Below are positions 27,011 through 64,000 of a stretch of DNA of 64,000 bases, in pieces. Below the pieces are notes generated by a model. The model was not told the DNA's origin, made no database searches, and saw only the letters and a list, made by a program, of their open reading frames with translations. A program made the translations under genes and the position numbers. Origin of the DNA: an uncultured bacterium (lineage in GTDB: Bacteria; Babelota; Babeliae; Babelales; Babelaceae). The stretch lies in the NCBI GenBank assembly GCA_963717435.1, contig OY970332.1:128001-192000 (forward strand), given 5' to 3'. How positions within the stretch are numbered: position 1 is the first letter of the stretch; the number at the start of each line of letters is the position of its first letter.

Positions 27011-29131
27011 ATGACAAATTTTAAAAAACATATATTTTCGATAATTTGGGTAATTCTAGGGGTTTTTACGCCCTTAAATGCCTCAAATATCGCTTTAAAC
27101 CAACAAAAATATGAATTTTTGTGTTCTACCCTGCTCTCAAATGAAACTAAGGACCAAGAGGTTTCTGAGGTTGAAGATAAGAACCTACAACAAGGGAACA
27201 TTTGGAGCAGACTTTCTGAGCTTGTCTTAGGAAAAAGACAAAAAACACCTGATTTGAATATAAAGACATTAAATAACTACGAAAAACTGGATTTAACTCT
27301 AAGTAATATTTCACCCTGCCAAGCCGATTTTGGGGTCGTTGAGGAGCATGTGATGAAAGAACTTAGTTTAACTACAGGTGCAGGTTCAAATAAGCAGGAG
27401 CATTTGGTTAATTCTATAAACAGATGTTCGAGCATATTTGGCTATATTACGCTTGCTCAAGAGATTTCAAACCCTACGGACAATATCGAACTCTTGGAAA
27501 AAAAGCAGGAGCTTTGCAAGCAGTTTTTAAACTCTGACAAGGCCAGAGAAAAAATCACTCAAAATCTTAAAGATATTAAAACGGGCGAAGATTCTTTACT
27601 TAGACTTTATGAAAAAAAGAATATGTTTCACCATAAAGTTAAAGAGTATAGTATCGAGAAATATCTTTCTTCTAACCCTGTTCTTAAACCACTTGGAAAA
27701 GAACTTGATTCTAGCCCAACGGCTCTTACCCACTGGAAACGTGCCGCTATTTTGAACAAGCTGTCCGGAACATTAAACTTCCCATTCGTTGGAAGTGTTG
27801 CAGGTGGTGCATTCTTAATAAAGAACGTTCAGTGGTTACTATCTACGGACATTGCGCAGGGCATAAAACAGGTTAAAGCTCTAACTGAGTATGTTAAAGA
27901 CACACAAATGGTCAAGACTTTAACAACTTTTACAGACACAAAATATCTATACAAAAGCTTTATGGAGTCTGAGACAAGCACAAAAGTTAAGTTGGCGCTT
28001 TTAGCAGCAGTGCTGGCGGTGCCCTATGGGATAATATACAGAGTGCAGCTAGATAACATATTTGGCGGAATAGACTTTGATAATCAGTTGGTTAACAAAG
28101 TAAAAACCGAAATCCAAAATATTTCGATATTAATTAAAGCTTTAATTAATATTAATAGTTTCGCGCAGAATTATAAAAACAAAAAATATTTCGAGCATAT
28201 TAAGGGCCTAGAATACTTAAATAATGTATGCACAAAGCCTGAACTGATTTCAGAAAAATTAAAGCAGCTATTAGAAATAATATTATCTGGAAAAGAGATT
28301 ACCGATGGTGAAGCTCTTGCTTCATATTATCTTCTGGATGACGTCAAGAAAGAGATAATGCCTGCTCTAGAGGTTATAGGTCAAATTGATGTTGCAGTTT
28401 CAACAGCTAGTTTAATAAAAGAGTTTGAAAACAAAAGAGTTAAATTTAGCTTTGTTAAATTTGTTAAATCAGATAGGCCATATTTAATAATCAAAAATGG
28501 CTGGACCCCGTTAGTTAATCCAGAATTTGTTGTTGCGACAGATTTTGAAATTAATGGGCCAAGAGACATAAAAAACATGATGTTAACAGGACCCGGTGGT
28601 TGCGGTAAATCTACAAGTATGAAAGAGCTTTGTAATAATATTATTATGGCTCAAACACTTGGTATTGCCCCTGCTGATAGCATGGAACTTGCGCCTTATA
28701 GCAAAATCTGCACGGCTATTGGTGTCGAAGAAGATTTAAGCAGAAATAAATCTAAGTTTATGGCCCAACAAGAGCGCATGAATAATATAGAAAAGACTAT
28801 CGACGAAACAGACAGGCTTGTGTTTATAGCAGTCGACGAGTGCTATAACGGGACAACTGAGATTCTTGGAGCAAAATTATTATATAATTTCGCATTAAAA
28901 GCGGGTCAGTCAGAACACACCACTTCGATAATTTCAACCCACTTTAGGGTTGGCGCCGAAGTGCCGAACTTCTCTAATTTCCAGGTTGAATTACTTGAAC
29001 CTACACCCGGTAAATTTAAAAGAACATTTAGGCTTCTTGATGGAGTTTGTGAGTGGTGGTTGCATGATGCTGAAAAAGCTGCGCGCTTTGCTCGTTGGCT
29101 CCATGGTATGGAGATGGTCTCGGGCATATAA
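27011..29131 (+). CDS. MutS-like ATPase (domains III/V only) with signal peptide and internal hydrophobic segments
   Basis: IGQIDVAVSTA, GWTPLV, LTGPGGCGKST, MAQTLG, SKFMAQ, VDECYNGT, ISTHF; no mismatch-binding domain evident. Confidence 0.8.
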   Translation: MTNFKKHIFSIIWVILGVFTPLNASNIALNQQKYEFLCSTLLSNETKDQEVSEVEDKNLQQGNIWSRLSELVLGKRQKTPDLNIKTLNNYEKLDLTLSNISPCQADFGVVEEHVMKELSLTTGAGSNKQEHLVNSINRCSSIFGYITLAQEISNPTDNIELLEKKQELCKQFLNSDKAREKITQNLKDIKTGEDSLLRLYEKKNMFHHKVKEYSIEKYLSSNPVLKPLGKELDSSPTALTHWKRAAILNKLSGTLNFPFVGSVAGGAFLIKNVQWLLSTDIAQGIKQVKALTEYVKDTQMVKTLTTFTDTKYLYKSFMESETSTKVKLALLAAVLAVPYGIIYRVQLDNIFGGIDFDNQLVNKVKTEIQNISILIKALININSFAQNYKNKKYFEHIKGLEYLNNVCTKPELISEKLKQLLEIILSGKEITDGEALASYYLLDDVKKEIMPALEVIGQIDVAVSTASLIKEFENKRVKFSFVKFVKSDRPYLIIKNGWTPLVNPEFVVATDFEINGPRDIKNMMLTGPGGCGKSTSMKELCNNIIMAQTLGIAPADSMELAPYSKICTAIGVEEDLSRNKSKFMAQQERMNNIEKTIDETDRLVFIAVDECYNGTTEILGAKLLYNFALKAGQSEHTTSIISTHFRVGAEVPNFSNFQVELLEPTPGKFKRTFRLLDGVCEWWLHDAEKAARFARWLHGMEMVSGI

Positions 29132-42500: not shown

Positions 42501-44228
42501 CTATTTTAAGCTTAACCCGGGTAGCGGTTCAGAAGTCGCCAAAGACGGTCTTGGGACGCCCAAAATGTAAGATAAGCTTACAGGTACAGAAAGCATAGAA
42601 ACGTTCTTAAATATCGTCTGCTTTTGGAACCTGCTGGACTGATAAAATATTAGCGGCACCTGGCGGTCATAATTTTGCGGGCTCAAATGGGTTGTACCAG
42701 AAGGCAAATTATCCATAAAATTATACGGTCTTATTTCATAAATTAACTGCCCACTTCTACCTGGGAAAGTTTGATTTTTAAAGTACCAACCTGGATCGCC
42801 TTCTTCAAAAATAGCACTTTTAAGTTCTTTTTCTGACCAAACCCTACCTATCCCGGTCTGAGATAACAAATAATCTTTTAAATCTTTATTAATTTTTTCC
42901 TGAGTCTCAGGATCAAGTTTATTAAATTTGTTAAGATCATAGTAAAAAAACGGGGCCTTAAATTTAAACACAAACTTATCTATGTCATATTTTTTCTTAA
43001 CCAGATCGTTCATAGCAGCAAATATCTCTTGCTCATTAAGTCTTTTTGCCATAGGCATACCCTGATCCTTTGTAACCTCATAAATCGGTTGCATGCCATG
43101 ATCGGCTGTCAGGATAAATAGAACATCTTTTTTATCAAATTTAGAGTATACAAAATCCATAAACTCTTGAAGCTGGTGATCCATTTGATAGATCATATCG
43201 ATATATTCAAGGGTTTGCGGACCATACAAGTGACCGATTTTATCAAGACTACTTAAACTTAGCCACATTAATATTTTATTATTATTTTTCTTTTCTAGAT
43301 TTTCTTTTATCGTATTTTCAAGCGCAAGCTCAGCCAGATTCACCAAATTTTTATTTGCCATTGGCGTCGCCAAAAATAACGCATACGGCTCTTTGGTTTT
43401 ACGATCTATGCCAATATATTTGCCGATAATCGAGTGACCCAAAGTAGAATATTTATAGTTGTCTATTTCTGGGAATTTGTACTGCTCAGCTGATTTATCA
43501 AAAAGCGGGTTCCATTTAAAACTCTTAACTTGGTCGATTTTTTGGTCTGTGTTAAATTTTACGAGCCAATCTGGTAATTTATCAAAATAAGCTTTGCTTG
43601 AGGTAAAAAATGCATCTTTTTCATCAAACCATACGGCTTTTGCACCAGCTTCTCCGGCCAACGCCCCCATATGTCCGGCCAATGCTATTGCGGCCCTGCT
43701 TTTTAAAGAAAGCGATAATATACTGTATTTTGAAATTGGAGAATGGGCCAACACGATCTGATCAGACAGGTTATCAACCAATATATTCTTGGGAGATTTG
43801 CCTTTTTTATCTTTAATGGCATAAGTCGAAATACCATCTTTTTTAAATACTGCAGCTGATTCGGAACTATCATCATCGGCTTTAGTTTTTTTCTCTTTGC
43901 CTTGCTCAAACCACTCATTATTTACTATCCCATGATCTTTTGCATATGCCCCTGTGGAAAGCGCAGTATGACCTATGGCTGTCCCAGGTGCCGCATGGGG
44001 AAAAAACGCACTCATGTAACTTGTTCCGTTATCCAGCAAATTACCCAGGCCCCCTTTAAGATATGGTCTTAAAGATCTAAGCGAGTTAAAAGATAACTGG
44101 TCGATTACTATAAAAACGGTCAACTTAGGCGCTTCAACAGCCTTGGTACTTTTCTCTTCAGCAGCCAAAGCCGCAAAGTTTATTATTATGGCAATCAGGG
44201 CAATATTAAACCACCTTATAACCTTCAC
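42501..44228 (-). CDS. Secreted alkaline phosphatase superfamily protein (PafA/nucleotide pyrophosphatase-like)
   Basis: PKLTVFIVIDQL, GTAIGH (Thr nucleophile), HGIVNNEW, SLKSRAAI, DKIGH.YGP, LTADHG, GTTH, YDRQVPLI. Confidence 0.9.
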   Translation of the reverse strand: MKVIRWFNIALIAIIINFAALAAEEKSTKAVEAPKLTVFIVIDQLSFNSLRSLRPYLKGGLGNLLDNGTSYMSAFFPHAAPGTAIGHTALSTGAYAKDHGIVNNEWFEQGKEKKTKADDDSSESAAVFKKDGISTYAIKDKKGKSPKNILVDNLSDQIVLAHSPISKYSILSLSLKSRAAIALAGHMGALAGEAGAKAVWFDEKDAFFTSSKAYFDKLPDWLVKFNTDQKIDQVKSFKWNPLFDKSAEQYKFPEIDNYKYSTLGHSIIGKYIGIDRKTKEPYALFLATPMANKNLVNLAELALENTIKENLEKKNNNKILMWLSLSSLDKIGHLYGPQTLEYIDMIYQMDHQLQEFMDFVYSKFDKKDVLFILTADHGMQPIYEVTKDQGMPMAKRLNEQEIFAAMNDLVKKKYDIDKFVFKFKAPFFYYDLNKFNKLDPETQEKINKDLKDYLLSQTGIGRVWSEKELKSAIFEEGDPGWYFKNQTFPGRSGQLIYEIRPYNFMDNLPSGTTHLSPQNYDRQVPLIFYQSSRFQKQTIFKNVSMLSVPVSLSYILGVPRPSLATSEPLPGLSLK

Positions 44229-51892: not shown

Positions 51893-52540
51893 ATGTTAAA
51901 AAATTTAAAAATCTTAGCGATATTAGGGCTATTATTGTCAGTAGGCAATAGTTATACTTTATCCAAAACACCCAAAAAATATGTTACTCAAATTGAAGCT
52001 CGTAAGTATGGTGTTATTTTTGACAAATATTACGAGGTAGATTCTTTGAATAAAGAATTTAGAGACCAGACGTTGAAAAAAGATTTTATTATAACAAGCC
52101 AAAACTTTGAATTGCAAAATAAAACTAAATCAAAAGTGATGGTAATTGCAGAACTATTTAATCAAAATGATGGCTCTTGCATCTTTCTAGGATCTGAGAC
52201 TATAGGGCCAAAGGCAGCCTCTAATAAGTTTAAAAACATAGTGATACGCGACGCCTTCCAAATAAAAATAGTTTATCCAGATGAAAAGGGCAATATAGAA
52301 ATAACACGCAAAAATAATGGCTGTGCTGAAACTGATTCTCCTAAAGCAATTTTTGCAATCAACACAAAGTCTGACAAAAAAGATATAAAGACATTTTATT
52401 TTACATTAAAGGGCGATGATTTAACGACAATCAGCTTAAAGCCGGAAACGGGCCAATTAAACGGTCTATCTGGCATAACTGAGTCTGGTCTATATCTTGG
52501 AGATAACGTAGAACAAAGTAATATAAAGAGAGAGCGGTAA
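51893..52540 (+). CDS. Secreted paralog array member 1
   Basis: Signal peptide MLKNLKIL..LGLLL; QNFEL.NK; C-terminal LKPETGQL...TESGL. Confidence 0.85.
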   Translation: MLKNLKILAILGLLLSVGNSYTLSKTPKKYVTQIEARKYGVIFDKYYEVDSLNKEFRDQTLKKDFIITSQNFELQNKTKSKVMVIAELFNQNDGSCIFLGSETIGPKAASNKFKNIVIRDAFQIKIVYPDEKGNIEITRKNNGCAETDSPKAIFAINTKSDKKDIKTFYFTLKGDDLTTISLKPETGQLNGLSGITESGLYLGDNVEQSNIKRER

Positions 52541-52569
52541 TAATAAAAAATAAAAAAAGTGGAGAATTT

Positions 52570-53328
52570 ATGTTAAAAAATTTAAAAATCTTATCGATAT
52601 TAGGGTTATTATTGTCAGTCGGCAATAGTTATACCTGGTCCAAAACTTTACTAAAAACACCCAAAAAATATGTTACTGCAACTGAAGCTCGTAATTATGG
52701 CTACACGGATGATTATAACTCACTAGATTCTGCGAATAGAGAATTTACTGACACCAAGCTGAATAAAAAGTTTATTATGACCAATCAAAACTTTGAATTG
52801 CGCAACAAAACTAAATCAAAAATAATGGTAATTGCAGAAATATACAATTCAATTACCGGTTGTAAGTTTTTAGGCCTTGAAAAAATTGAACCGGGCAAAG
52901 CCTCTGAGACATTCACAAACATAGAAATACCTGAACAACATATGTCGCCTGCAGATAGATTGCAGATAAAAATAATTTATGCAGATAAAAACAAATCCCT
53001 GCCTACCTATGAAGCCAATTATGGTAATCACTGCGCCAAAAACATGGCGCTCGACCGAACAGTTGGTTTTTTAATAGCAAATCCACAATTTAAAGATGGC
53101 AGCCCAAAAGGGACATTTTATTTAACATTGGATGGAGATTCTGTACAAAGTAGCAATTTAAGACCCCAAACAGGACAATTAGGTAAATTTATGGGGATAG
53201 AAACGGGTCTAGCGTCAAAGACTGAGACTGGTCTTTACATAGGAAACAATATATTAAAAGGAAGCATATCTAAACAAGGAACTATAATTTCCACAAATCC
53301 ATTTATAAAAACAAATATACAGTATTAA
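52570..53328 (+). CDS. Secreted paralog array member 2
   Basis: Same leader; QNFELRNK; LRPQTGQLG...KTETGL. Confidence 0.85.
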   Translation: MLKNLKILSILGLLLSVGNSYTWSKTLLKTPKKYVTATEARNYGYTDDYNSLDSANREFTDTKLNKKFIMTNQNFELRNKTKSKIMVIAEIYNSITGCKFLGLEKIEPGKASETFTNIEIPEQHMSPADRLQIKIIYADKNKSLPTYEANYGNHCAKNMALDRTVGFLIANPQFKDGSPKGTFYLTLDGDSVQSSNLRPQTGQLGKFMGIETGLASKTETGLYIGNNILKGSISKQGTIISTNPFIKTNIQY

Positions 53329-53353
53329 TCTTAAATTAAAAAAAGGAGAGTTT

Positions 53354-54304
53354 ATGAAGAAAAATTTACAAATCTTATCAATGTTGGGGTTATTATTGTC
53401 AGTAGGCAATAGCTACACTCTATCCAAAACTTATCTTGGAGTAACAGAAGTTTATGTACCAACCACGGAAAGAGATGATTTGGGACTAAGGGTTGGTGAC
53501 TTTTATAAATATGACTACTTTAATGAGATGGATAAGATAAACAAGACATATGAAGCTAAGATAGAAAACGCAAAGGTGGCTGATAAGAAAAAACTGGAGC
53601 AAGAACAAACTGCAGCCTTAGAAAAGCTTAAACAATCATCTAAAGTAGATGAATTAACTACTCTCAACAAAGTTACAACAATCATGATTAGCGACAAAAA
53701 TTTCGAAATTTTTAACAAATCAAAAGGCCCTATTACCATAGCTTTACAATATATAGAGCCTAACGCACAAAGTGGACCTTTATTAAAAATCAATCCTAAT
53801 AGTACGGCTGATAAATATACGCAAGTCATAAATCCTGGAAAGGAAAACCAGTTCCAATACACAGACGTATTGCCAATATATCCAGCAAACAAAGATGCGA
53901 AGTTGAGATTATATATTTGGGATAAGTCGGTAAAAGTCGAAAAAGAGGAATCAACGGTAGATTGGGCCAAGAAAGGACTTATCAATCTGGGAGCAAAACT
54001 AATCGGCGATGAATACAAAAAACCCACTTCCTACAAAATAAAAAATCCACAATATATATATGAATTTAGAGATCTATATACTTTAAATCGGTTTAATATG
54101 ATAGAACCAGTTGCAAACAAAGACAAAAAACCTATATTAACACTTTTGTTGACATGGGACGGAAAAGAAAAGAATCCTCTAAGGCCTGAAACTGGGCAAC
54201 TGGGACCACTACAGTCGCTTGGAATTCCTAAGAAAACTGAATCTGGTTTGAGTTCCGAATTCAATCTCGAGGCAAAGAACATAGTTCAAGTGACGGCCAA
54301 GTAA
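53354..54304 (+). CDS. Secreted paralog array member 3
   Basis: Same leader; NFEIFNKSKGPITIALQY; LTWDG; LRPETGQLG...KTESGL. Confidence 0.85.
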   Translation: MKKNLQILSMLGLLLSVGNSYTLSKTYLGVTEVYVPTTERDDLGLRVGDFYKYDYFNEMDKINKTYEAKIENAKVADKKKLEQEQTAALEKLKQSSKVDELTTLNKVTTIMISDKNFEIFNKSKGPITIALQYIEPNAQSGPLLKINPNSTADKYTQVINPGKENQFQYTDVLPIYPANKDAKLRLYIWDKSVKVEKEESTVDWAKKGLINLGAKLIGDEYKKPTSYKIKNPQYIYEFRDLYTLNRFNMIEPVANKDKKPILTLLLTWDGKEKNPLRPETGQLGPLQSLGIPKKTESGLSSEFNLEAKNIVQVTAK

Positions 54305-54323
54305 TAAGTTTATTTAAAAATTT

Positions 54324-54355
54324 GGGGCCGGAGGTAAAACTCCGGTCTATTTTTT
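54324..54355 (+). terminator. Terminator of first trio
   Basis: GGCCGGAG-GTAAAA-CTCCGGTC plus T-run; same core at 57237-57269. Confidence 0.8.
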
Positions 54356-54490
54356 GCAGATTTTTTTCACCGGCCCGAAATCTATTATTTCAGATAGAAA
54401 AATCTATTGCATTTCGTCCATAAAATACTTTACTCTATAAATAAGGGGAAGATTGACTTCGATTATATTATTTAAAAAAGGGCAGAAGTT

Positions 54491-55273
54491 ATGTTAAAAA
54501 AGCTAAAAATATTATCGATACTGGGGTTATTATTTATCTCTAATGCTTTTTCTATAAGCAAAAACATACTCGACACACCAAAACTATATCTCCCGGGTGG
54601 CATCGCAAATTTAAGCTCGATCGATCTTAAAGATTATGAAAGTAAAAAATATGACACTTCGAAGGATCCTGCTAAAAATGCGATAGATAAAATGGGGTTA
54701 AAAGATCGCCCGAGTAAGGTGATATTTACGGAGCAAAATTTTGAAGTCTTCAACAAAACAGATAAGTCCATAACGATAGCTTTACAGCTTTCAATACAAA
54801 ATTCGCTCCACGCATCGGGGGAAATTTATTCCAACCCGACATTTGAAATTATCTCACCTAAAAAGCAATCTACTGTAATCCGAAATCTTCAAACCACAAT
54901 CGATGATATGCCTGAAATTAATAAACTTAGCCGTTCTAAGAGATCTTTAACACTATATATTTGGCCAAATAAATCTGCATACAAAGAACAAAGAGATGGA
55001 AAAATTCTAAATCTTTCACAAAATCCTGGCTTGGTCTACGTTTATAAATTTAAAGATTTGGAAAAATTTAACAAAAAGAATAACCCTAAATATACAATGT
55101 ATTTAACATTTGACGGCAAAATAAATGATAAAAAAGGTGATATTGGTCTAAGGCCACAAACTGGTCAATTAGGTAAAATTTTTGGAAAAGAAACGGGACT
55201 AGCATCAAAGACTGAAACTGGTTTATCTCTGGTAACTAATATTGATAAAAATGACATAGAGCAATTTAAATAG
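54491..55273 (+). CDS. Secreted paralog array member 4
   Basis: Signal peptide; QNFEVFNKTDK; LRPQTGQLG...KTETGL. Confidence 0.85.
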   Translation: MLKKLKILSILGLLFISNAFSISKNILDTPKLYLPGGIANLSSIDLKDYESKKYDTSKDPAKNAIDKMGLKDRPSKVIFTEQNFEVFNKTDKSITIALQLSIQNSLHASGEIYSNPTFEIISPKKQSTVIRNLQTTIDDMPEINKLSRSKRSLTLYIWPNKSAYKEQRDGKILNLSQNPGLVYVYKFKDLEKFNKKNNPKYTMYLTFDGKINDKKGDIGLRPQTGQLGKIFGKETGLASKTETGLSLVTNIDKNDIEQFK

Positions 55274-55293
55274 TCTAACAAAGCGGTAGATAT

Positions 55294-56142
55294 ATGTTAA
55301 AAAATATAAAATTATTGTCGATAGTGGGATTATTATTATTTATCTCCAATGTTTTTTGTATAAGCAAAACCATATTTGACACACCCAAATTATATTTCCC
55401 AACTGTCATCAAAGATGCTTACACCAATATTAATTACACAGATAAATATGATACCTCAAAGGGTATTGCTGAGCAGGCAATAGAGACAATGGGGCTAAAA
55501 GATTATCCGAGAAAAGTGATATTTACAAATCAAAATTTTGAAATATTCAACAAAACAGATAAGCCCATAACGATAGCTTTACAGTATTCACGAATAAATC
55601 CAGTGCCTAACAAGTCTATTTTTTCCAAACCGATTTTTGAAATTATACAAGCTAAAACACAATCTACTGTGATCAAAAATCTGCAATATGGTGGCGTAAT
55701 TGACACCGAAATTAATGGAACTGGCTCAGGAACATTAACTTTATATATTTGGCCCAATAAATCCACCTACATCGCTCAAAAAAGTGAGAAAATGCTAGAC
55801 GTTTCAAATACTGGCCCGGTTTATGTTTATACATTTAATAACCTACAAAGACTTAAAAAAATTCTGAAAGATGGTGACTATTACTTCGAAGGCAACCCCA
55901 AATATACAATCTACGTAACATTTGACGGCAAAATCGATGAGGACAAAGGCGATATTGGACTAAGACCACAAACTGGTCAATTAGGTAAATTAGGTAAAAT
56001 TTTTGGAAAAGAAACGGGACTAGCATCAAAGACTGAAACTGGATTATCTCTGGTAACCAATATTGATAAGGGTGATATAAAATTAACCAGAATTGAAAAT
56101 CAAAAGCGAAAAACAGAAGCAGAAATACTAGAACAGAAGTAA
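55294..56142 (+). CDS. Secreted paralog array member 5
   Basis: Signal peptide; QNFEIFNKTDK; LRPQTGQLGKLGK...KTETGL. Confidence 0.85.
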   Translation: MLKNIKLLSIVGLLLFISNVFCISKTIFDTPKLYFPTVIKDAYTNINYTDKYDTSKGIAEQAIETMGLKDYPRKVIFTNQNFEIFNKTDKPITIALQYSRINPVPNKSIFSKPIFEIIQAKTQSTVIKNLQYGGVIDTEINGTGSGTLTLYIWPNKSTYIAQKSEKMLDVSNTGPVYVYTFNNLQRLKKILKDGDYYFEGNPKYTIYVTFDGKIDEDKGDIGLRPQTGQLGKLGKIFGKETGLASKTETGLSLVTNIDKGDIKLTRIENQKRKTEAEILEQK

Positions 56143-56213
56143 TTTGTATATCTGTAGAGAGGTACGATTTATAAAGGGTTTAATTAAAATAATTTTTAAA
56201 AAACGGGGAGTTT

Positions 56214-57206
56214 ATGTTTAAAAATCTAAAAATATTTTCGATAGTGAGTTTATTGCTGGGCCTCTTGGGATTAGCTGATATCTATTCTATTAGTTCAACA
56301 CTAGTAGAGCCTGTGAGGTTATATTTACCCAAAGCAGAAAGAGAAAGAAAAAAGGTTAAAGTTAATGAAAATCTCCAAACGGACGAATATTTCTATGAGA
56401 CAGATCTAAGCCTATCTCAACTCCTAAAGGGAACTGATAAAAAAGCCAAAGTCACCTTTGATACTATTACATACAAACCAACAAAAAGCCCCAAACCTTG
56501 GGACGTTGAAATTACCAATCAAAACTTTGAAATATTTAATAAATCAAATGGACCTATAACATTTGCTCTGCAATATAGCGATAAGGGACCAGGTGGCAGA
56601 TCATTCTTAGGCGAGCCTTATGTAGAAAGAGTCTTAAAGGGCAAGGCATCTAAAAACATTGAAACTGCGCAGGGCGATGCAAACTTCTTAGAAAACATCA
56701 GTCAATTATATCACAGAGATCAGGGACAAGATAATCCGAAAATACTGCTTCCAACTGAGCGTCAAATACTGCTTCCAACTGAGCATCTTTGTTTATATAT
56801 CTATAAAGGGGAATTTGAAATCCAAACAGAAAGAGATGTGATGGTTGGAAAGGGGGACGCACAAAATCCTAACAGAATCGTAAGTGATCCGTATCGTGTT
56901 TATGAATTTAAAATTCCAGTACTTAAGAATAGCAAAGGCAATCCTATAACAACAATTTATTTAACATGGGACGATAAGGCAAACAAAAAAACATACTCGA
57001 CTGGATTAAAACCCGAAACTGGTCAATTAGGTAAAATTTTGGGGATAGAAACCGGTCTGGCATTTAAAACTGAATCAGGTTTGTCGATTATAACTAATTT
57101 GGATCAGGCCAATATAATAGACATTACACAAAAGGTTAAGAAAGAATTAGGAAACGATGCGGTAGCTCCGAAACCATATGTTAGGAAAAAAAAGAAGACA
57201 GAATAA
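56214..57206 (+). CDS. Secreted paralog array member 6
   Basis: Signal peptide; NFEIFNKSNGPITFALQY; LTWDD; LKPETGQLG...KTESGL; basic tail RKKKKTE. Confidence 0.85.
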   Translation: MFKNLKIFSIVSLLLGLLGLADIYSISSTLVEPVRLYLPKAERERKKVKVNENLQTDEYFYETDLSLSQLLKGTDKKAKVTFDTITYKPTKSPKPWDVEITNQNFEIFNKSNGPITFALQYSDKGPGGRSFLGEPYVERVLKGKASKNIETAQGDANFLENISQLYHRDQGQDNPKILLPTERQILLPTEHLCLYIYKGEFEIQTERDVMVGKGDAQNPNRIVSDPYRVYEFKIPVLKNSKGNPITTIYLTWDDKANKKTYSTGLKPETGQLGKILGIETGLAFKTESGLSIITNLDQANIIDITQKVKKELGNDAVAPKPYVRKKKKTE

Positions 57207-58642: not shown

Positions 58643-58667
58643 CTAAAATATTGCAGTTAAATTTACC
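58632..58667 (+). repeat. Direct repeat, right copy, spanning both convergent stop codons
   Basis: Matches 57270-57306. Confidence 0.85.
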
Positions 58668-59638
58668 CAGGCGGCGAATATTTTGGTGTCATACAATTTT
58701 AATCTGCCAATATTTAATCCTGCCCCTAAAACTATCGGGACGTTAATGCCTGGGCAACGCTTAAAGAGATGATTAAAGTTTGCGTAAAAACTGTTTCTGA
58801 CAAACCAGTGGCTCTTAATCTCTCTTGTGGGCAACAAAATAGCCTGGTTGCTAAAAAAAGTTGGGTTATAACCGGCTTCAAGTAAATTAAATTTGAATCT
58901 ATATTCTAAAGTAAATAATAAGTCCGTTACGTTTCCCGGTTGAATTTTTGCGCCTACTGGCAACACAGGGTAAAAGTATCTATTAAAAAAGTGTATGAAC
59001 CTGTTTTGAAAGACAAATATTACGTTTCTTTTTTCTTGATTTATAAAGCTGTAAGAAAACTCGGAGCCAACACCCAGACTATAAAATCTTGTTCCAACAA
59101 GTGGATCTTGGGCATCAAAAAGTGTGATTTTTCGATTTGTTGGAAAGCCCGTAAGCGCATATAAATCTATCTGTAAATCTTGAGTTGGAAAGAAATTATA
59201 ACCACCAGAAAAAACTATGTCATCGAGCCCAGTTTTTGATGTTTTAAAACTTGATGCAGGGCTAATTTTAGAATCGGATCGCACATGTTCGGTTTCTATG
59301 CCAGTTGTTGCTTCTAGCCACCAGTTTTTTGATCTAATATAACGTAAGTTTAAAATCGCACCGTCAGTTAGACGATTCTCGCAAATATCTGTTGGGACAA
59401 GTATATCGTTAACTATGTGCCGATCTCGCTTATAAACTATTGGCAATACTGTTGGCACCCAAAATGGTTTTTGCGGTATCGTACCAAGTAGCTTATTTAC
59501 TCTGAAAACTCGCCTGATTTTAAGGTTATAAACAAGTGAAATTGGGCAAATATTTGCCGCATTAAATATTATTAAGCTTAAAAATATTAGTTTGGATTTT
59601 TTTGTTAAAATTAAAGATATAAAACTGTTGCCGGACAT
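58643..59638 (-). CDS. Secreted hypothetical protein, probable outer-membrane beta-barrel
   Basis: Signal peptide, TGLDDIVFSGGY segment, alternating beta pattern, C-terminal WVNLTAIF. Confidence 0.6.
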   Translation of the reverse strand: MSGNSFISLILTKKSKLIFLSLIIFNAANICPISLVYNLKIRRVFRVNKLLGTIPQKPFWVPTVLPIVYKRDRHIVNDILVPTDICENRLTDGAILNLRYIRSKNWWLEATTGIETEHVRSDSKISPASSFKTSKTGLDDIVFSGGYNFFPTQDLQIDLYALTGFPTNRKITLFDAQDPLVGTRFYSLGVGSEFSYSFINQEKRNVIFVFQNRFIHFFNRYFYPVLPVGAKIQPGNVTDLLFTLEYRFKFNLLEAGYNPTFFSNQAILLPTREIKSHWFVRNSFYANFNHLFKRCPGINVPIVLGAGLNIGRLKLYDTKIFAAWVNLTAIF

Positions 59639-59863
59639 AGCTACTCTCTTAATTTTTTATTAAAATTTTATTCACAATTTAATTATAGTTCACAACAAAA
59701 AAATATATTTGTAAAAAACAGTAATTTTGCCCCATGCTTTCTGTTTTAACGCGCCGCCATTTCAGGAAAATAATCAGGAGGCTATTTTGACATCAAAACT
59801 CATTATGTTAAGCTTTTGGCATGTGGAGAAAATATTAAAAAACAGTCACAATCGGAGTCATAT

Positions 59864-60547
59864 ATGAAAAAGATATCTTTATTAATATTACTAGCAACTA
59901 CGAGTTCTGTATTAGTCGCAGAAAAAAGTGAATTAGAAATTCTTAGAGAAAAGCATGATGCTGCACTTAAAGAAGTTGTAAAACATATTGATGACATGTG
60001 GTACGAAGAGGCAACAGTTAATTCGCACACAGTCAACCCGCAAATAGGTTTTGTCAGCGGCCCAATGGGTATTACTGATGGCCACTATGGTGCTTCATTT
60101 GGAACCACTCACACATCAACAACAATAAACAAGCTTTTTTTCAATACCCCTGAGGCTGGAAGAGAATACAACAAATATCTAAAAGCGTTGTCACCATTTG
60201 AGTGGGACATATTCAAAAAAGACTTAATCACAAGTATTGCAACAGGCATTGTTTCAGGCTTAGCTCTGAATCAAAAATTACTTGACCAAAAAACAGAAGC
60301 AGAGTGGTCAACTGTCGATAAAATTGCGGTTACAGCACCTTTCTTGGCACCGATTGCCGAAATCATCGCAACCAACTTACTTGAAAATCCTATGAAATAT
60401 TTTAACAGCCGAACACTATCGGTTCATGATAACCTTTATGGAAATCTAAGTTGGAAAACAACTGGTAGAATATTGGGGCATGTTATTATGTCATATGTAA
60501 CACTTGGTGGAACAGCAATTGTAAAAAAAGCTGTATTAGCAAAGTAA
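59864..60547 (+). CDS. Secreted/membrane hypothetical protein
   Basis: GGAG SD before MKKISLLILLA; three C-terminal hydrophobic stretches. Confidence 0.7.
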   Translation: MKKISLLILLATTSSVLVAEKSELEILREKHDAALKEVVKHIDDMWYEEATVNSHTVNPQIGFVSGPMGITDGHYGASFGTTHTSTTINKLFFNTPEAGREYNKYLKALSPFEWDIFKKDLITSIATGIVSGLALNQKLLDQKTEAEWSTVDKIAVTAPFLAPIAEIIATNLLENPMKYFNSRTLSVHDNLYGNLSWKTTGRILGHVIMSYVTLGGTAIVKKAVLAK

Positions 60548-60568: not shown

Positions 60569-60602
60569 ATGGCTCGCAGATAACTCTGCGGGCCATTTTT
60601 TT
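60569..60602 (+). terminator. Rho-independent terminator
   Basis: ATGGCTCGCAGA / TCTGCGGGCCAT plus T-run. Confidence 0.75.
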
Positions 60603-60688
60603 GTTGTAAAATAAAATATAAATAGTAAACTTTCGTGAGCAAAATTAATTAATCAAGTTTCATTTAACCCGATTCTTTAGGAGACATC

Positions 60689-61357
60689 ATGAAAAACAGA
60701 TTTTTCTTCCTGCCGTTTTTTTTTACCCTAACGACTATTAATATTTTTTCTAATATTTCTAATAATAAAGAGCTGATTCTAAAATTAAATAAAATAGGCG
60801 CGATAAAGTTTGAAAACGTAACACTTGAGGGAGGCATAGTCTCCCCATTTTATTTTGATATGAGGCTTATAATTTCTTATCCAGACGTGTTAATAAACTT
60901 TGCAGACGCGATAAAAGGAAAAATGGAAAATATAAACTGCGATGTGATTTGTGGCGTGCCTTATGCCGCTGTTCCTGTTGCAACTTTGGCTTGTGCGAAC
61001 ACAAAGACGCCCATGATCATGCAACGGAAAGAGCCCAAATCCCATGGCACAAAAAAGATGCTTGAGGGGAACTTTAAAAAACAGGATAAGTGCTTGATAA
61101 TCGAAGATGTGATTGTAACCGGAAACAGTATTAAAAAAAGTGCAGTAATATTAGAAGATCATGATTTGATTGCACGCGATGTTATTATTCTGATTGATAG
61201 AGAACAGGGGGGCGTTCAGCGCCTTGAAAAAGAGGGGTTTAGGGTTCATACGATATTGCAGCTATCAGAAGTGATTCAGGTTTTACTTGAAGAAAAATTA
61301 ATCACACAGGCACAAGTGGATATTGTTAGAGATTTTTGCGCAAACAATAGAGTTTGA
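60689..61357 (+). CDS. pyrE: Orotate phosphoribosyltransferase (UMPS-like) with signal-peptide-like N-terminus
   Basis: SPFYFDMR, CGVPYAAVP, RKEPKSHGTKK, LIIEDVIVTG, IDREQGG; AGGAG SD before MKNRFFFLPFFF. Confidence 0.85.
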   Translation: MKNRFFFLPFFFTLTTINIFSNISNNKELILKLNKIGAIKFENVTLEGGIVSPFYFDMRLIISYPDVLINFADAIKGKMENINCDVICGVPYAAVPVATLACANTKTPMIMQRKEPKSHGTKKMLEGNFKKQDKCLIIEDVIVTGNSIKKSAVILEDHDLIARDVIILIDREQGGVQRLEKEGFRVHTILQLSEVIQVLLEEKLITQAQVDIVRDFCANNRV

Positions 61358-61380
61358 GTCTAAAAAACTGGAGATGAGTT

Positions 61381-63108
61381 ATGAAGAAAAATCTAATCTT
61401 AATAGCTGTATTTATAAATATAATTTTTATAAATACAGCTAATTCTAAAAGCTTAAATTATAACATTTTTGGATATGCGATTAATTCTCCAATAGGGGTT
61501 GCTGCATGCCCGATAACAACAAGTAAGGGTATAAAATCTATATCAAAAATGGGTTATGATATTATAACTTATAAGACAATTAGAAGCTGCGAACAACAGT
61601 GTCATAAGGCTCCTAATATTTTTTTTGTAGACTGCAAAAGAAAAATTAGGAGATCTGATATTTGTGGAAAATTTTGTGCAGTTGGCGAACATGAACCAAC
61701 TGATCTGATAAAAAGAGATAATAGTGATAGTTGCTCTGACGAATTTTTAGATAATTTAACAATTACTAATTCTTTTGGGATAAGTTCTCAAGATCCAGAA
61801 GAAACAATTAGGGACATAAAATTAAGCAGAGAAATGCTTCAAGATGGCCAGGTCTTAATAGTATCTGTTTATGGTTCAGGAAATACATCCTCCTGCGCTA
61901 AAGCTCCGGAGGACAGGAAAGAACAGATAGATGACTTTGTAAAAACAGCAAAAATAGCTGTTGCAGGTGGCGCCCAGATTATCGAAGCTAATTTATCCTG
62001 CCCCAATATTGCGGACAATCAAAAACTTATATACCAGGACCCAATATTGGTCCATGACATTTGCAGAGCCATAAATCAAGAGATCCCCGAGATTCCGTTA
62101 ATTGTAAAAATTGGTTTGTGTGAAAATTTAGATATCATGAAAGATATTTTTGTCGCTGCACATAACGGCGGAGCTAAGGGAATATGTGGAATAAATACTG
62201 TGCCTGTCAGTGTTGTTGACGAATTGGAAAGACCAGTATTTGATGAACAAAGAAAGATGAGCGGACTATCAGGTTCTGCCATATTTGATTTAACTTTAGA
62301 ATTTGTAAAAAATGCAAAAAAAATAATTAAAGAAGAAAAATTAGATCTAAAATTATTTGCAACTGGAGGCGTCACAAGATGGCAGCAGTTTGATATCTTA
62401 CTTGCTGCAGGCGCAGATATTGTGCAGTGCGCAACTGGTGCGATGTGGAACAAAACTCTTGCGTTAGATTATCATAGTAATCATAGTTCAAAAAATTGTG
62501 ACCCAGAAAAAGTGGATCTGATTAAAACACTTTTTGGTATCGAAGCAATAAAAATTAAAGATATACAAATAAAAAGTGGCGCAATATCACCGATATATTT
62601 TGATATGAGATTAATTATCTCATACCCAGAAGTTTTAAAGCATATTGCGATAGAACTTAAAAAATTATTATCAAAATATAAGTTCGATATCGTCTGTGGG
62701 GTGCCATACGCTGCTGTGCCGCTAGCAACCAGCGTCTCTTTGCTTGGCAAATATTCTATGATCATGCATAGAAAAGAGGTAAAATCTTACGGCACCAAAA
62801 AAACTATAGAAGGCAATTATTCACAAGATAATATTTGCGCCGTAATTGAAGATGTAATTACAACAGGTTCCAGTATTTTAGAAACAGTAAAAGTTTTAGA
62901 AAATAATGGCTTAATTATTAATGATATTTTTGTACTTATCGATCGAGAACAGAACGGCGTTGAAAATGTTCAAAAACATGGCTACAAAGTTCACCCATTA
63001 TTTACGATCACCGAGATACTACAAGTTTTACTTGCCGAAAAACTTATCACTCATAACCAGTTTGCTACAATCAAACAGTTTTGCCTGGATAACAAAATTA
63101 ACATATAA
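61381..63108 (+). CDS. Class 1 dihydroorotate dehydrogenase-like domain fused to OPRT, with signal-peptide-like N-terminus
   Basis: SPIGVAACP, YKTIRS, NSFG, EANLSCPN, PLIVKIG, GINT, SGLSG, TGGV; C-terminal KSGAISPIYFDMR, CGVPY, RKEVKSYGTKK, IEDVITTG. Confidence 0.85.
   Translation: MKKNLILIAVFINIIFINTANSKSLNYNIFGYAINSPIGVAACPITTSKGIKSISKMGYDIITYKTIRSCEQQCHKAPNIFFVDCKRKIRRSDICGKFCAVGEHEPTDLIKRDNSDSCSDEFLDNLTITNSFGISSQDPEETIRDIKLSREMLQDGQVLIVSVYGSGNTSSCAKAPEDRKEQIDDFVKTAKIAVAGGAQIIEANLSCPNIADNQKLIYQDPILVHDICRAINQEIPEIPLIVKIGLCENLDIMKDIFVAAHNGGAKGICGINTVPVSVVDELERPVFDEQRKMSGLSGSAIFDLTLEFVKNAKKIIKEEKLDLKLFATGGVTRWQQFDILLAAGADIVQCATGAMWNKTLALDYHSNHSSKNCDPEKVDLIKTLFGIEAIKIKDIQIKSGAISPIYFDMRLIISYPEVLKHIAIELKKLLSKYKFDIVCGVPYAAVPLATSVSLLGKYSMIMHRKEVKSYGTKKTIEGNYSQDNICAVIEDVITTGSSILETVKVLENNGLIINDIFVLIDREQNGVENVQKHGYKVHPLFTITEILQVLLAEKLITHNQFATIKQFCLDNKINI
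61888..61917 (-). repeat. 30-bp hairpin element in frame inside the DHODH domain
   Basis: Minus strand CCTGTCCTCCGGAGCTTTAGCGCAGGAGGA; encodes SSCAKAPEDR on the plus strand. Confidence 0.8.
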
Positions 63109-63115
63109 ATAAGTA

Positions 63116-63141
63116 AATAGGGCCCGAGATTGGGCCCTATT
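63116..63141. terminator. Bidirectional terminator
   Basis: AATAGGGCCC / GGGCCCTATT between convergent genes. Confidence 0.75.
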
Positions 63142-63171: not shown

Positions 63172-64000
63172 TTATACTGACACTTGTGTTTGTGCGTCTT
63201 CGATTTTTGTATACTCAGATTGTTCTTCAAATAAATTGGAAAGCTCCATGGCGCGGGCAAGTCGCGTTAAGCCGATACCACCACCAAATCTTTCGATCAT
63301 CTGTAAAGACAAGTATTCATCAAGTTCTTTTAGTACTCTATCTTTGCCAAATTTTGAGAATAATAAGCTACAGTACTCGCCATTTTCTATAGTAAAAAAT
63401 CTTTCGCGCATGCGGTTAATATCTGTTTCTCTTTCTGCTGACCCAATAGTCTCCATGCCATGCAACAGGATATCTATTTTGCTATAAACGCCATCCCCTT
63501 CTGATTTCATGTTCCAAAATGGATTTGTATGCTCTGGAAATTTTTCAAGACTTATAGAACTACCATATTTTTTTGAAAGAGCAGTTTCATGTATAGCTTC
63601 AAGTATATCAGTTTCATAAGCTTGTGCGGCGCTTAAATAATCTATAGTGATTGGCAAATCGAAACCAAGAAATAGAAGAAGTTCTTCTTCAAGTTTTTTA
63701 AGTTCATCAAATGTTCCATGGGACTCAAACTCAAACATTGGAAACACTCTTTTATGACGACCCTCGATTGGGGTCGGCTCGTCGCGATAACTTGTTGTAA
63801 CACAAAATACGCCGGGCCAACTTGGATTTTTTAGCATCTCATATTCCAGCCACATCTGACCCGTCTGTGGGAGAGGGAAAACTTCGCCTCCAATACTATA
63901 CTCTGTTATGGTCTTGGGCTGCTCGCATGCTGCCAAAATCGACGTCCGTGATTGGGCCGGGACCTCTATAAAGCCCTTTTTTTCTTGAAAAAAATTACGC
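63172..64000 (-). CDS. Class II aaRS (Asp/Asn) catalytic-domain protein, asparagine-synthetase-like; 5' end beyond window
   Basis: Frame open to the window edge (RNFFQEKKGFIEVPAQSRTSILAACE); PLPQTGQMWLE, SYRDE...GRH...FPMFEFE, ETIGSAERE, RFGGGIGLTRL. Confidence 0.85.
   Translation of the reverse strand, partial: RNFFQEKKGFIEVPAQSRTSILAACEQPKTITEYSIGGEVFPLPQTGQMWLEYEMLKNPSWPGVFCVTTSYRDEPTPIEGRHKRVFPMFEFESHGTFDELKKLEEELLLFLGFDLPITIDYLSAAQAYETDILEAIHETALSKKYGSSISLEKFPEHTNPFWNMKSEGDGVYSKIDILLHGMETIGSAERETDINRMRERFFTIENGEYCSLLFSKFGKDRVLKELDEYLSLQMIERFGGGIGLTRLARAMELSNLFEEQSEYTKIEDAQTQVSV

Follow-up and report, generated by a model that had tools for sequence, protein, structure and literature searches.

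Candidate exported enzymes of pyrimidine synthesis in an uncultured Dependentiae bacterium: a leader-bearing orotate phosphoribosyltransferase beside a leader-bearing DHODH-like/OPRT fusion

In the window analysed here, a stretch of 64,000 nucleotides from an uncultured bacterium of the phylum Dependentiae (assembly GCA_963717435.1, contig OY970332.1, positions 128,001 to 192,000 of the forward strand), two plus-strand open reading frames (ORFs) adjoin at 60689-61357 (ORF1, 222 amino acids) and 61381-63108 (ORF2, 575 amino acids), exactly where a preliminary description of this DNA had placed them. ORF1 is a stand-alone orotate phosphoribosyltransferase (OPRT) paralogue, ORF2 is a flavoenzyme resembling dihydroorotate dehydrogenase (DHODH) and dihydropyrimidine dehydrogenase (DPD) fused to a second OPRT, and each begins with a predicted Sec-type leader. 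The best explanation, to which we give a probability of about 0.5, is that both enzymes are exported by the Sec route to the periplasm or the host, where they would act on host dihydroorotate and host phosphoribosyl pyrophosphate (PRPP). Together with a leader-bearing IMP dehydrogenase elsewhere in the genome, they would be pyrimidine and purine nucleotide enzymes with apparent export signals in an intracellular parasite of protists, within an uncharacterised fusion family. The enzyme assignments are well founded, with specificity for DHODH over DPD-like activity being putative; we infer export, cleavage of the leaders, an electron acceptor (fumarate or O2) and a benefit to the parasite from the genes.

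Both leaders are 22-24 residues long and consist of a basic n-region followed by an uncharged hydrophobic stretch. In ORF1, the leader (60689-60757, plus strand; residues 1-23, MKNRFFFLPFFFTLTTINIFSNI) is an extension that precedes the OPRT fold and, read as MKNRFFFLPFFFTLTTINIFS, is made up of MKNR, FFFLPFFFTLTTINIF and I-F-S. In ORF2, the leader (61381-61446, plus strand; residues 1-22, MKKNLILIAVFINIIFINTANS) comprises MKK, a 13-residue core and A-N-S at positions -3 to -1, preceding Lys23. By inspection and by a crude rule, both appear to match the pattern used by Sec and signal peptidase I. The rule takes the best uncharged 11-residue segment starting at residues 2-20 and asks for a Kyte-Doolittle mean of at least 1.8 with net positive charge before it, and its false positives are Rossmann-fold N-termini. 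It was passed by 377/910 real N-termini of ORFs that have no further transmembrane segments and at 18/2315 internal methionine sites of the same proteome (0.8%), so that leaders exceed the chance level. A Tat route was rejected, as the leaders have no twin arginine and TatC had no match in the genome, and so was a lipoprotein signal, as neither leader has a lipobox or a cysteine after the hydrophobic region.

Each leader ATG is preceded by a Shine-Dalgarno motif on the plus strand, AGGAG at 60679-60683, 5 nt ahead of ORF1, and GGAG at 61370-61373, 7 nt ahead of ORF2, and the good ribosome-binding sites and basic-hydrophobic leaders that the preliminary description had reported for both genes are thus borne out, with the leaders as quoted there. 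After the leader ATGs, canonical start codons do not recur in frame until codon 58 of ORF1 and codon 57 of ORF2, each of which already belongs to the conserved core; upstream, the two frames are closed by stops at distances of 7 codons and 1 codon, respectively. A full-length enzyme must therefore contain the leader, barring a rare start codon, and a translation start downstream of the leaders, which had been proposed as a check, was not seen in canonical form before the conserved core. A genome of 35% GC favours F, I, N and K, rare in-frame starts (ATT, ATA, CTG) do lie behind the leaders and some orthologues are leaderless, all of which would suit ordinary cytoplasmic enzymes whose leaders reflect AT-rich composition or are bypassed through non-canonical initiation, with unrecognised genes filling the gaps in the pathway. 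Such enzymes are improbable here, given that the leader rule is positive at so few internal methionines of this proteome, that the Shine-Dalgarno motifs precede the leader ATGs and not downstream sites, and that leaders recur on orthologues otherwise diverged in sequence.

The identity of the OPRT parts is well supported, as both pass TIGR00336 (ORF1 125.4 bits, ORF2 135.7 bits, cut-off 106.8). The HMM envelope in ORF1 begins at residue 24, and among solved structures this protein is closest to human UMP synthase (UMPS), namely to its OPRT domain (2wns, E 1e-43), with the alignment starting at residue 29. The OPRT domain of ORF2 (62503-63099, plus strand; residues 375-573) is placed by Foldseek on the same human domain with a TM score of 0.90 and 40% identity, which agrees with the earlier remark that the motifs resemble those of eukaryotic UMPS. 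The two copies are 48% identical over 195 amino acids, close paralogues as had been described. OPRTs have an acidic motif that binds PRPP, a flexible catalytic RKExK..G loop and a DR(E/Q) motif at the orotate site, and all three are kept in ORF1 and ORF2 (IIEDVIVTGNS and VIEDVITTGSS; QRKEPKSHGTKK and HRKEVKSYGTKK; LIDREQGG and LIDREQNG). Both copies have the PRPP motif, the flexible loop and DREQ in common with the human UMPS domain and with bacterial PRK13809-type OPRT; they differ from these in that each carries a leader, in the substitution of ORF1 described below, and in that OMP decarboxylase (orotidine 5'-monophosphate decarboxylase) is neither fused to them nor found separately in the genome.

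The lysine of the LKSG motif, which we take to be Lys26 in Salmonella numbering, is Lys or Arg in 161/168 aligned OPRT domains. It is present in ORF2, which has the canonical IKSG, and is replaced in ORF1 by Glu47 of LEGG (L46-G49; 60824-60835, plus strand), the other catalytic motifs of ORF1 being intact. Glu occurs in ORF1 alone among the 168 domains, so that the suspicion that the stand-alone copy is altered concerns a real difference; Ala, His or Asn occupies the position in a few other free paralogues that lie beside DHOD-like genes. Given Glu47, ORF1 may be impaired, specialised or a partner subunit, and a literature search on the role of the conserved lysine found nothing relevant. In a quick tree with SH-aLRT support, for which the leaderless stand-alone P rows were thinned to one in three (75/168 rows removed), ORF1 and three leader-bearing free OPRTs nest within the OPRT-domain clade of the closest fusions (SH-aLRT 92, 96), with a branch length of 0.65 for ORF1 and 0.24 for ORF2. 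One ORF1 variant that is 99% identical exists (P0121).

The N-terminal part of ORF2 is a flavin mononucleotide (FMN) barrel of the class-1 DHODH/DPD type (61453-62478, plus strand; residues about 25-366). Residues 171-358 pass PF01180 (DHO_dh; 65.1 bits, cut-off 27) and align only to profile positions 105-276. An AlphaFold2 (AF2) model built with 53 homologues (pLDDT 92.1, pTM 0.88) shows a helix at residues 2-20, the barrel from residue 27 and the OPRT domain from about residue 375. Across the 53 aligned homologues, K65, N130, E202, N204, C207, P208, N209, K243, N272, G329 and G330 are invariant; the lysines, asparagines and cysteine among them are presumably the flavin-binding lysines, ring-binding asparagines and catalytic cysteine of class-1 DHODH and DPD, by their correspondence to residues of the Lactococcus enzyme. 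Cys207 (codon 61999-62001, plus strand) lies in EANLSCPN and would be the class-1 type catalytic base, so that the barrel and catalytic cysteine named in the preliminary description stand. A class-2, quinone-linked DHODH was rejected, because residue 207 is Cys and not Ser, the N-terminal helix at 2-20 is single, and searches of the genome gave no match for UbiA or cytochrome bd. The barrel also holds a Cys-rich insert (window 61580-61740, ORF2 residues about 68-120; CEQQC...C...C..C...C, pLDDT 62-67) that homologues do not conserve; were the protein extracytoplasmic, these cysteines could be disulfide-bonded or serve as metal ligands.

While the fold is clear, the substrate is less so. The nearest solved structures by sequence are DPD (1gt8, 2.2e-10) and the Lactococcus-type DHODH B (5ksw, 7e-10), and Foldseek matches the barrel to DPD domain IV with E 3.5e-17 (22% identity) and to DHODB 1ep1 and the human and E. 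coli DHODHs at about 4e-15; on both measures, the DHOD-like part thus has DPD as a slightly nearer neighbour than DHODH. Scores against the NCBIfam DHODH equivalogs are every one far below cut-off (81 bits vs 269, 75 vs 330), the ESM Atlas returned generic DHO_dh clusters only, and the catalytic residues, as aligned, fit DPD as well as DHODH. ORF2 shares with the class-1 DHODHs (Lactococcus PyrDA/PyrDB, 1ep1, 5ksw) and with DPD domain IV (1gt8, 1h7w) the FMN TIM barrel, the SCPN catalytic cysteine and the conserved Lys and Asn residues that hold flavin and pyrimidine; it differs from them in being only 16-23% identical, in having no PyrK partner and no Fe-S domains, and in its OPRT fusion, leader and Cys-rich insert (about residues 70-120).

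In relatives, triple chains of 790-870 amino acids carry the DHOD-like domain, then OPRT, then OMP decarboxylase, and because this order matches pathway steps 4, 5 and 6 the substrate of ORF2 is read as dihydroorotate, a putative assignment that comes from the domains joined to the barrel, OPRT here and also OMP decarboxylase in relatives. The same data bear on the view that the pair does not serve pyrimidine synthesis, its barrel being instead a flavin oxidoreductase, DPD-like or otherwise, with another substrate (a dihydropyrimidine or a host molecule, for example), and its phosphoribosyltransferases (PRTs) serving salvage or a different base. The best solved match to DPD domain IV, the low equivalog scores and the names 'hypothetical' or 'dihydrouridine synthase' that relatives bear in the sources would all be expected of such an enzyme; the step-wise fusion order, two PRT domains above the OPRT equivalog-domain cut-off, the lack in ORF2 of the Fe-S and NADPH domains required by DPD, and the retention of all pyrimidine-ring-binding Asn and Lys residues speak against it, and we consider the different-substrate view rather unlikely.

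The genome that houses the pair, which the names of homologues place in Dependentiae/Babeliales, is a closed-looking single contig of 1,198,203 bp with 35% GC and a marker-based completeness of 88.8%, and it was examined by six-frame HMM searches; the searches for seven pathway functions were each positive in 14/14 control genomes. With this control, no match was found in the genome for the aspartate/ornithine carbamoyltransferase (ATCase/OTCase) fold, for dihydroorotase or any other Amidohydro_1 protein, for PRPP synthetase (best 17.6 bits, a ComF-like gene), for UMP kinase or for the GMP synthase C-domain. CarB likewise had no match, the single weak carbamoyl-phosphate synthetase (CPSase) match being a tandem D-Ala-D-Ala ligase; the source of this false match is a protein of 774 amino acids with two such ligase units (contig 494413-496737, minus strand). 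PyrK, UbiA, cytochrome bd and flavokinase gave no matches in the genome. No true OMP decarboxylase was detected there when the corresponding domains of the triple fusions served as tblastn queries (best E 0.64); the sole gene of the OMPdecase fold (contig 822498-823121, minus strand) is leaderless and resembles 3-hexulose-6-phosphate synthase (HxlA), with 141 bits against TIGR03128 (below its cut-off of 200) and 37.5 bits against pyrF (cut-off 92.3). ORF1, ORF2 and one ComF-like gene are the only PRT-domain genes. The remaining steps of the pathway, for which the preliminary description had proposed looking, were thus not found by HMM or tblastn search, and the NTT transporters it had asked after are present at three loci. 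Although the incompleteness of the assembly leaves some room for unrecognised cytoplasmic genes, seven independent functions are not found in a single contig with controls at 14/14, and OTCace_N was found in 0/151 genomes of the phylum. In the available text of a comparative study of TM6, all nucleoside biosynthesis genes are reported missing from its seven genomes (PMC4776705).

As no genes were found for the supply of dihydroorotate, PRPP or FMN or for the use of OMP, the enzymes most likely work outside the bacterial cytoplasm, where host metabolism would supply the first three and use the fourth, so that all four problems would be solved together. In the proposed mechanism, ORF1 and ORF2 would be made with Sec-type N-terminal signal peptides and would act either in the periplasm, with host metabolites entering through porins, or in the host cytosol, reached via type II secretins or vesicles. 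There, the ORF2 barrel would convert dihydroorotate to orotate, the OPRTs would join orotate to PRPP to give OMP, and host UMPS and kinases would complete the pathway, the mitochondrial, respiration-linked DHODH of the host being bypassed. The parasite would then harvest nucleotides via its NTT transporters and profit from a larger host pool. The DHODH of eukaryotes is a respiration-dependent enzyme of the inner mitochondrial membrane, and for this reason pyrimidine synthesis in the host would no longer be tied to the mitochondrion once a soluble class-1 enzyme took part. Heavy remodelling of the host mitochondrion has been described in a cultivated relative (PMC6561590). Genes for the export route and envelope are at hand, with signal peptidase I (115.6 bits), SecG, two secretins, BamA, SurA, OmpH and TamB found in the genome, and two gspD copies are universal in the genomes of the comparative TM6 study, according to its available text (PMC4776705).

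The leaders could instead be uncleaved membrane tethers, with the enzymes on the cytoplasmic side using dihydroorotate or orotate and PRPP that transporters would bring in, and one anchor per complex being enough. The hydrophobicity of the leaders (19-residue Kyte-Doolittle window, 1.54 and 1.71) falls among the genome's own secretins, BamA, FKBP and amidase (1.42-1.93) and below the bitopic anchors MreC, FtsH and TamB (2.0-2.6), a comparison that comprises these three retrieved anchors, as three PBP look-ups gave none. Uncharged runs of 19-22 residues could nevertheless span a membrane, eukaryotic and class-2 DHODHs are membrane-bound, and several relatives carry a leader on one partner of a DHOD-like/OPRT pair, or are fusions with a single leader, as a tether would allow. 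Positive charges precede the hydrophobic core, however (K2 and K3 in ORF2; K2 and R4 in ORF1), which by the positive-inside rule puts catalysis outside; the cysteine in place of serine, the single helix and the missing UbiA and cytochrome bd give no ground for quinone access; and OMP formed in the cytoplasm would still have no onward route. Tethering is therefore held to be unlikely, though it deserves more weight than the other alternatives considered here.

Export to the outside also has to be weighed against the family to which the pair belongs. Among the fusion homologues P0002-P0034, the leader rule is passed by 14/33, and another 5 begin with a hydrophobic stretch that has no basic residue; of the closest stand-alone DHOD-like homologues, 20/26 are hydrophobic at the N-terminus. 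Further out, where some sequences are labelled CPR/Patescibacteria or Chlamydiales, the share falls to 5/60 of the DHOD-like homologues that come next, and among free OPRT homologues about 8/120 have a leader-bearing extension, the others beginning directly at the OPRT fold. The leader is thus present in ORF1 and ORF2 where cytosolic homologues (55/60 distant DHOD-like, about 112/120 OPRT) have no hydrophobic extension. The sampled genomes of the phylum hold four leader-bearing fusions, two lone leader-bearing DHOD-like genes and four split pairs with no leader, and the leader trait is recurrent in Dependentiae, not universal.

Several observations count against export as a reading of this pair, in addition to the DPD-like scores of ORF2, its failure at the DHODH equivalog cut-offs and the completeness of the genome in which the absences were recorded. 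A further 14/33 of the fusion homologues have no leader, one of them on a 1.7-Mb contig, although some are clearly cut or mis-started. In four further split pairs, the leader is on the OPRT only, with none on the adjacent DHOD-like gene. If leaders stand for export, successive reactions would then run in separate compartments, and this pattern is awkward for a simple export model. Prs is present in 11/19 module-bearing relatives, so that dependence on host PRPP is not general in the family; across the phylum, Prs is above cut-off in 69/151 genomes. FMN is required by the barrel and no TatC was detected, so that insertion of the flavin would have to follow passage through Sec. In a wastewater survey of metagenome-assembled genomes, few extracellular proteins were predicted in Dependentiae, as far as its available text goes (PMC11495043). 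Finally, the leader is not specific to the pyrimidine module, being found throughout the genome as set out below, and its meaning in the phylum could differ from classical export. In an exploratory comparison with groups set post hoc, Prs was missing in 0/5 genomes with a leaderless OPRT and in 5/11 with a leader-bearing OPRT; the hypergeometric value is about 0.1 by hand and the related genomes are non-independent, so this is not counted as support.

The module occurs in 20/151 sampled genomes of the phylum, this one included, and in 0/19 others of its own family; these counts come from a genome search, a related-locus search among genome contigs with the fusion protein alone having returned no relative. 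Fusions of the DHOD-like domain to OPRT, and in some members to OMP decarboxylase, are found in Dependentiae and Candidate Phyla Radiation (CPR) bacteria with the same architecture and 39-57% identity to ORF2; the present genome differs from other members in having the two-domain form with an extra free OPRT of altered lysine, and no Prs. A literature search found no publication that describes the DHODH-OPRT fusion family or links Dependentiae/TM6 to DHODH or OPRT. The patchy occurrence of the module, the long branch of ORF1 and the charge reversal at its conserved lysine could be those of genes left over from a lost pathway and now decaying without a function, yet both frames are intact, with Shine-Dalgarno sites and flanking terminators, the catalytic motifs are all kept bar one ORF1 residue, the AF2 model is confident and homologues are conserved across many genomes; decay of this kind is very improbable.

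In the genome as a whole, the leader rule is passed by 487/1166 ORFs (about 42%). A similar habit has been reported for the cultivated Dependentiae Chromulinavorax destructans, in which signal peptides are predicted on 44% of coding sequences, with ankyrin and hydrolase proteins included; in its available text, the paper reports nucleoside salvage only and no DHODH, OPRT or IMP dehydrogenase, the word 'orotate' having 0 occurrences (PMC6561590). A Pfam scan of 406 leader-positive ORFs returned envelope proteins and many ankyrin, WD40, LRR, PP2C and DnaJ proteins, and also cytoplasm-type enzymes whose domains start at residues 24-64, behind the leader. The latter include UDP-glucose dehydrogenase, GDP-mannose dehydratase, epimerases, short-chain dehydrogenases, thioredoxin-reductase-like proteins and AhpC, as well as ITPase, a uridine-kinase-like protein, GNATs, AAA+ and MutS-like proteins. 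So wide a spread of leaders has two sides, since export of enzymes could be a strategy of the lineage, yet the leader alone says little about any one protein. The preliminary description had proposed that the two enzymes are exported to alter host pyrimidine flux, and this stands in part: the genomic checks favour it, whereas leaders on about 42% of ORFs and the many leaderless homologues do not.

One of the leader-bearing enzymes, a full-length IMP dehydrogenase (IMPDH) outside the window (contig 1128522-1130048), scores 563 bits against TIGR01302 (cut-off 481.5) with its domain from residue 35. IMPDH was found in 2/61 sampled genomes, and the other copy also has a hydrophobic leader. With no GMP synthase found, this leader-bearing IMPDH appears to repeat the pattern of the pyrimidine module. 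A broader and more tentative proposal, possible but in our estimate rather doubtful, is that some Dependentiae export to the periplasm or host cytosol a small kit, made up of IMPDH, an auxiliary OPRT and a soluble class-1 DHODH-OPRT (joined to OMP decarboxylase in relatives), which would raise host UTP, CTP and GTP to be drained via the NTTs, and in which the Glu47 OPRT would pair with the fused OPRT. The enzymes of such a kit would be those of pacemaker or respiration-dependent steps, and host pyrimidine synthesis would be uncoupled from the respiratory chain.

Enzymes of intermediary metabolism with secretion signals have precedents among intracellular parasites. The secreted hexokinases of microsporidia likewise have a signal peptide on an otherwise cytosolic enzyme of an energy- and nucleotide-stealing parasite, presumably as a means of driving host metabolism, according to the available text of the two reports (PMC6460350, PMC3976299); they differ in that the parasites are eukaryotic, secretion is through the endoplasmic reticulum (ER) and has been shown experimentally, and the enzyme is glycolytic, whereas in the present case export is a prediction. 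In Chlamydia trachomatis, the glycogen enzymes are described in the available texts as housekeeping enzymes that acquired a secretion signal and act in the inclusion on host-derived substrates (PMC4829429, PMC9251005), but these signals are Type 3 secretion signals and not Sec leaders, and the metabolism concerned is that of carbohydrate and not of nucleotides. If export of ORF1 and ORF2 is true, a bacterial parasite would supply biosynthetic enzymes to a nucleotide pathway of its host, beyond stealing the products, and the microsporidian and chlamydial cases would have a parallel in nucleotide metabolism, with Sec as the route. A concrete role would then also be assigned to some of the signal-peptide proteins of Dependentiae, a very large set that is for the most part unexplained, and the DHODH-like/OPRT fusions, common among Dependentiae and CPR bacteria but so far uncharacterised, would be defined as a family.

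As to the layout of the locus, ORF1 and ORF2 are 23 nt apart, and on account of this short gap co-transcription is likely. A terminator-like hairpin with a T-run (60569-60596, plus strand; 12-pair stem, 7 GC) closes the preceding gene and marks the upstream limit, and a GC-rich palindromic hairpin (63116-63141) between ORF2 and the convergent downstream gene was called as a minus-strand terminator and may end the pyrimidine unit too. With the Shine-Dalgarno sites, the close spacing and these flanking hairpins, the pair looks like a discrete two-gene unit. No promoter is claimed, since sigma-70-like matches were not above shuffled sequence (9 vs 12.5 +/- 3.6), and an Rfam search of the window gave no match. 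A look-up of RNA or protein data for the locus likewise found none.

Other leader-bearing genes were seen in the window and elsewhere on the contig. Upstream of the pyrimidine unit, at window 51893-57206 (plus strand), five or six tandem paralogues of 215-330 amino acids with no Pfam match all begin MLKNLKIL(S/A)I(L/V)GLLL... and form an expanded leader-bearing family. The immediate upstream neighbours at 58643-59638 (minus strand) and 59816-60547 (plus strand) are also leader-bearing, with no Pfam or NCBIfam match; the first, of 331 amino acids, ends in ...NLTAIF, and its aromatic last residue is, we assume, like that of outer-membrane barrels. A leader-bearing type I phosphodiesterase/nucleotide pyrophosphatase (PF01663; window 42504-44228, minus strand) is a plausible extracytoplasmic nucleotide scavenger. 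MutS-like proteins that pass the leader rule lie at window 27011-29128 (plus strand) and contig 205498-208821; they have MutS_V and MutS_III domains, one protein with ankyrin repeats as well, and would be odd cargo for export. Between contig 306000 and 326000 runs a leader-bearing set of glycan genes (UDP-glucose dehydrogenase, GDP-mannose dehydratase, epimerase, GT2, GT6, methyltransferases), with a leader-bearing GT10 (PF00852) and a TylF methyltransferase upstream of it (about contig 302-305 kb), and at contig 943929-945827 (plus strand) a leader-bearing protein of 632 amino acids has a C-terminal Ntox17 domain by Pfam. Downstream of the pyrimidine unit, at window 63172-64000 (minus strand) and continuing to contig position 192041, a protein of 289 amino acids consists of the catalytic core only of a class II aminoacyl-tRNA synthetase (PF00152), with no anticodon domain, and is an AsnA/EpmA-like paralogue.

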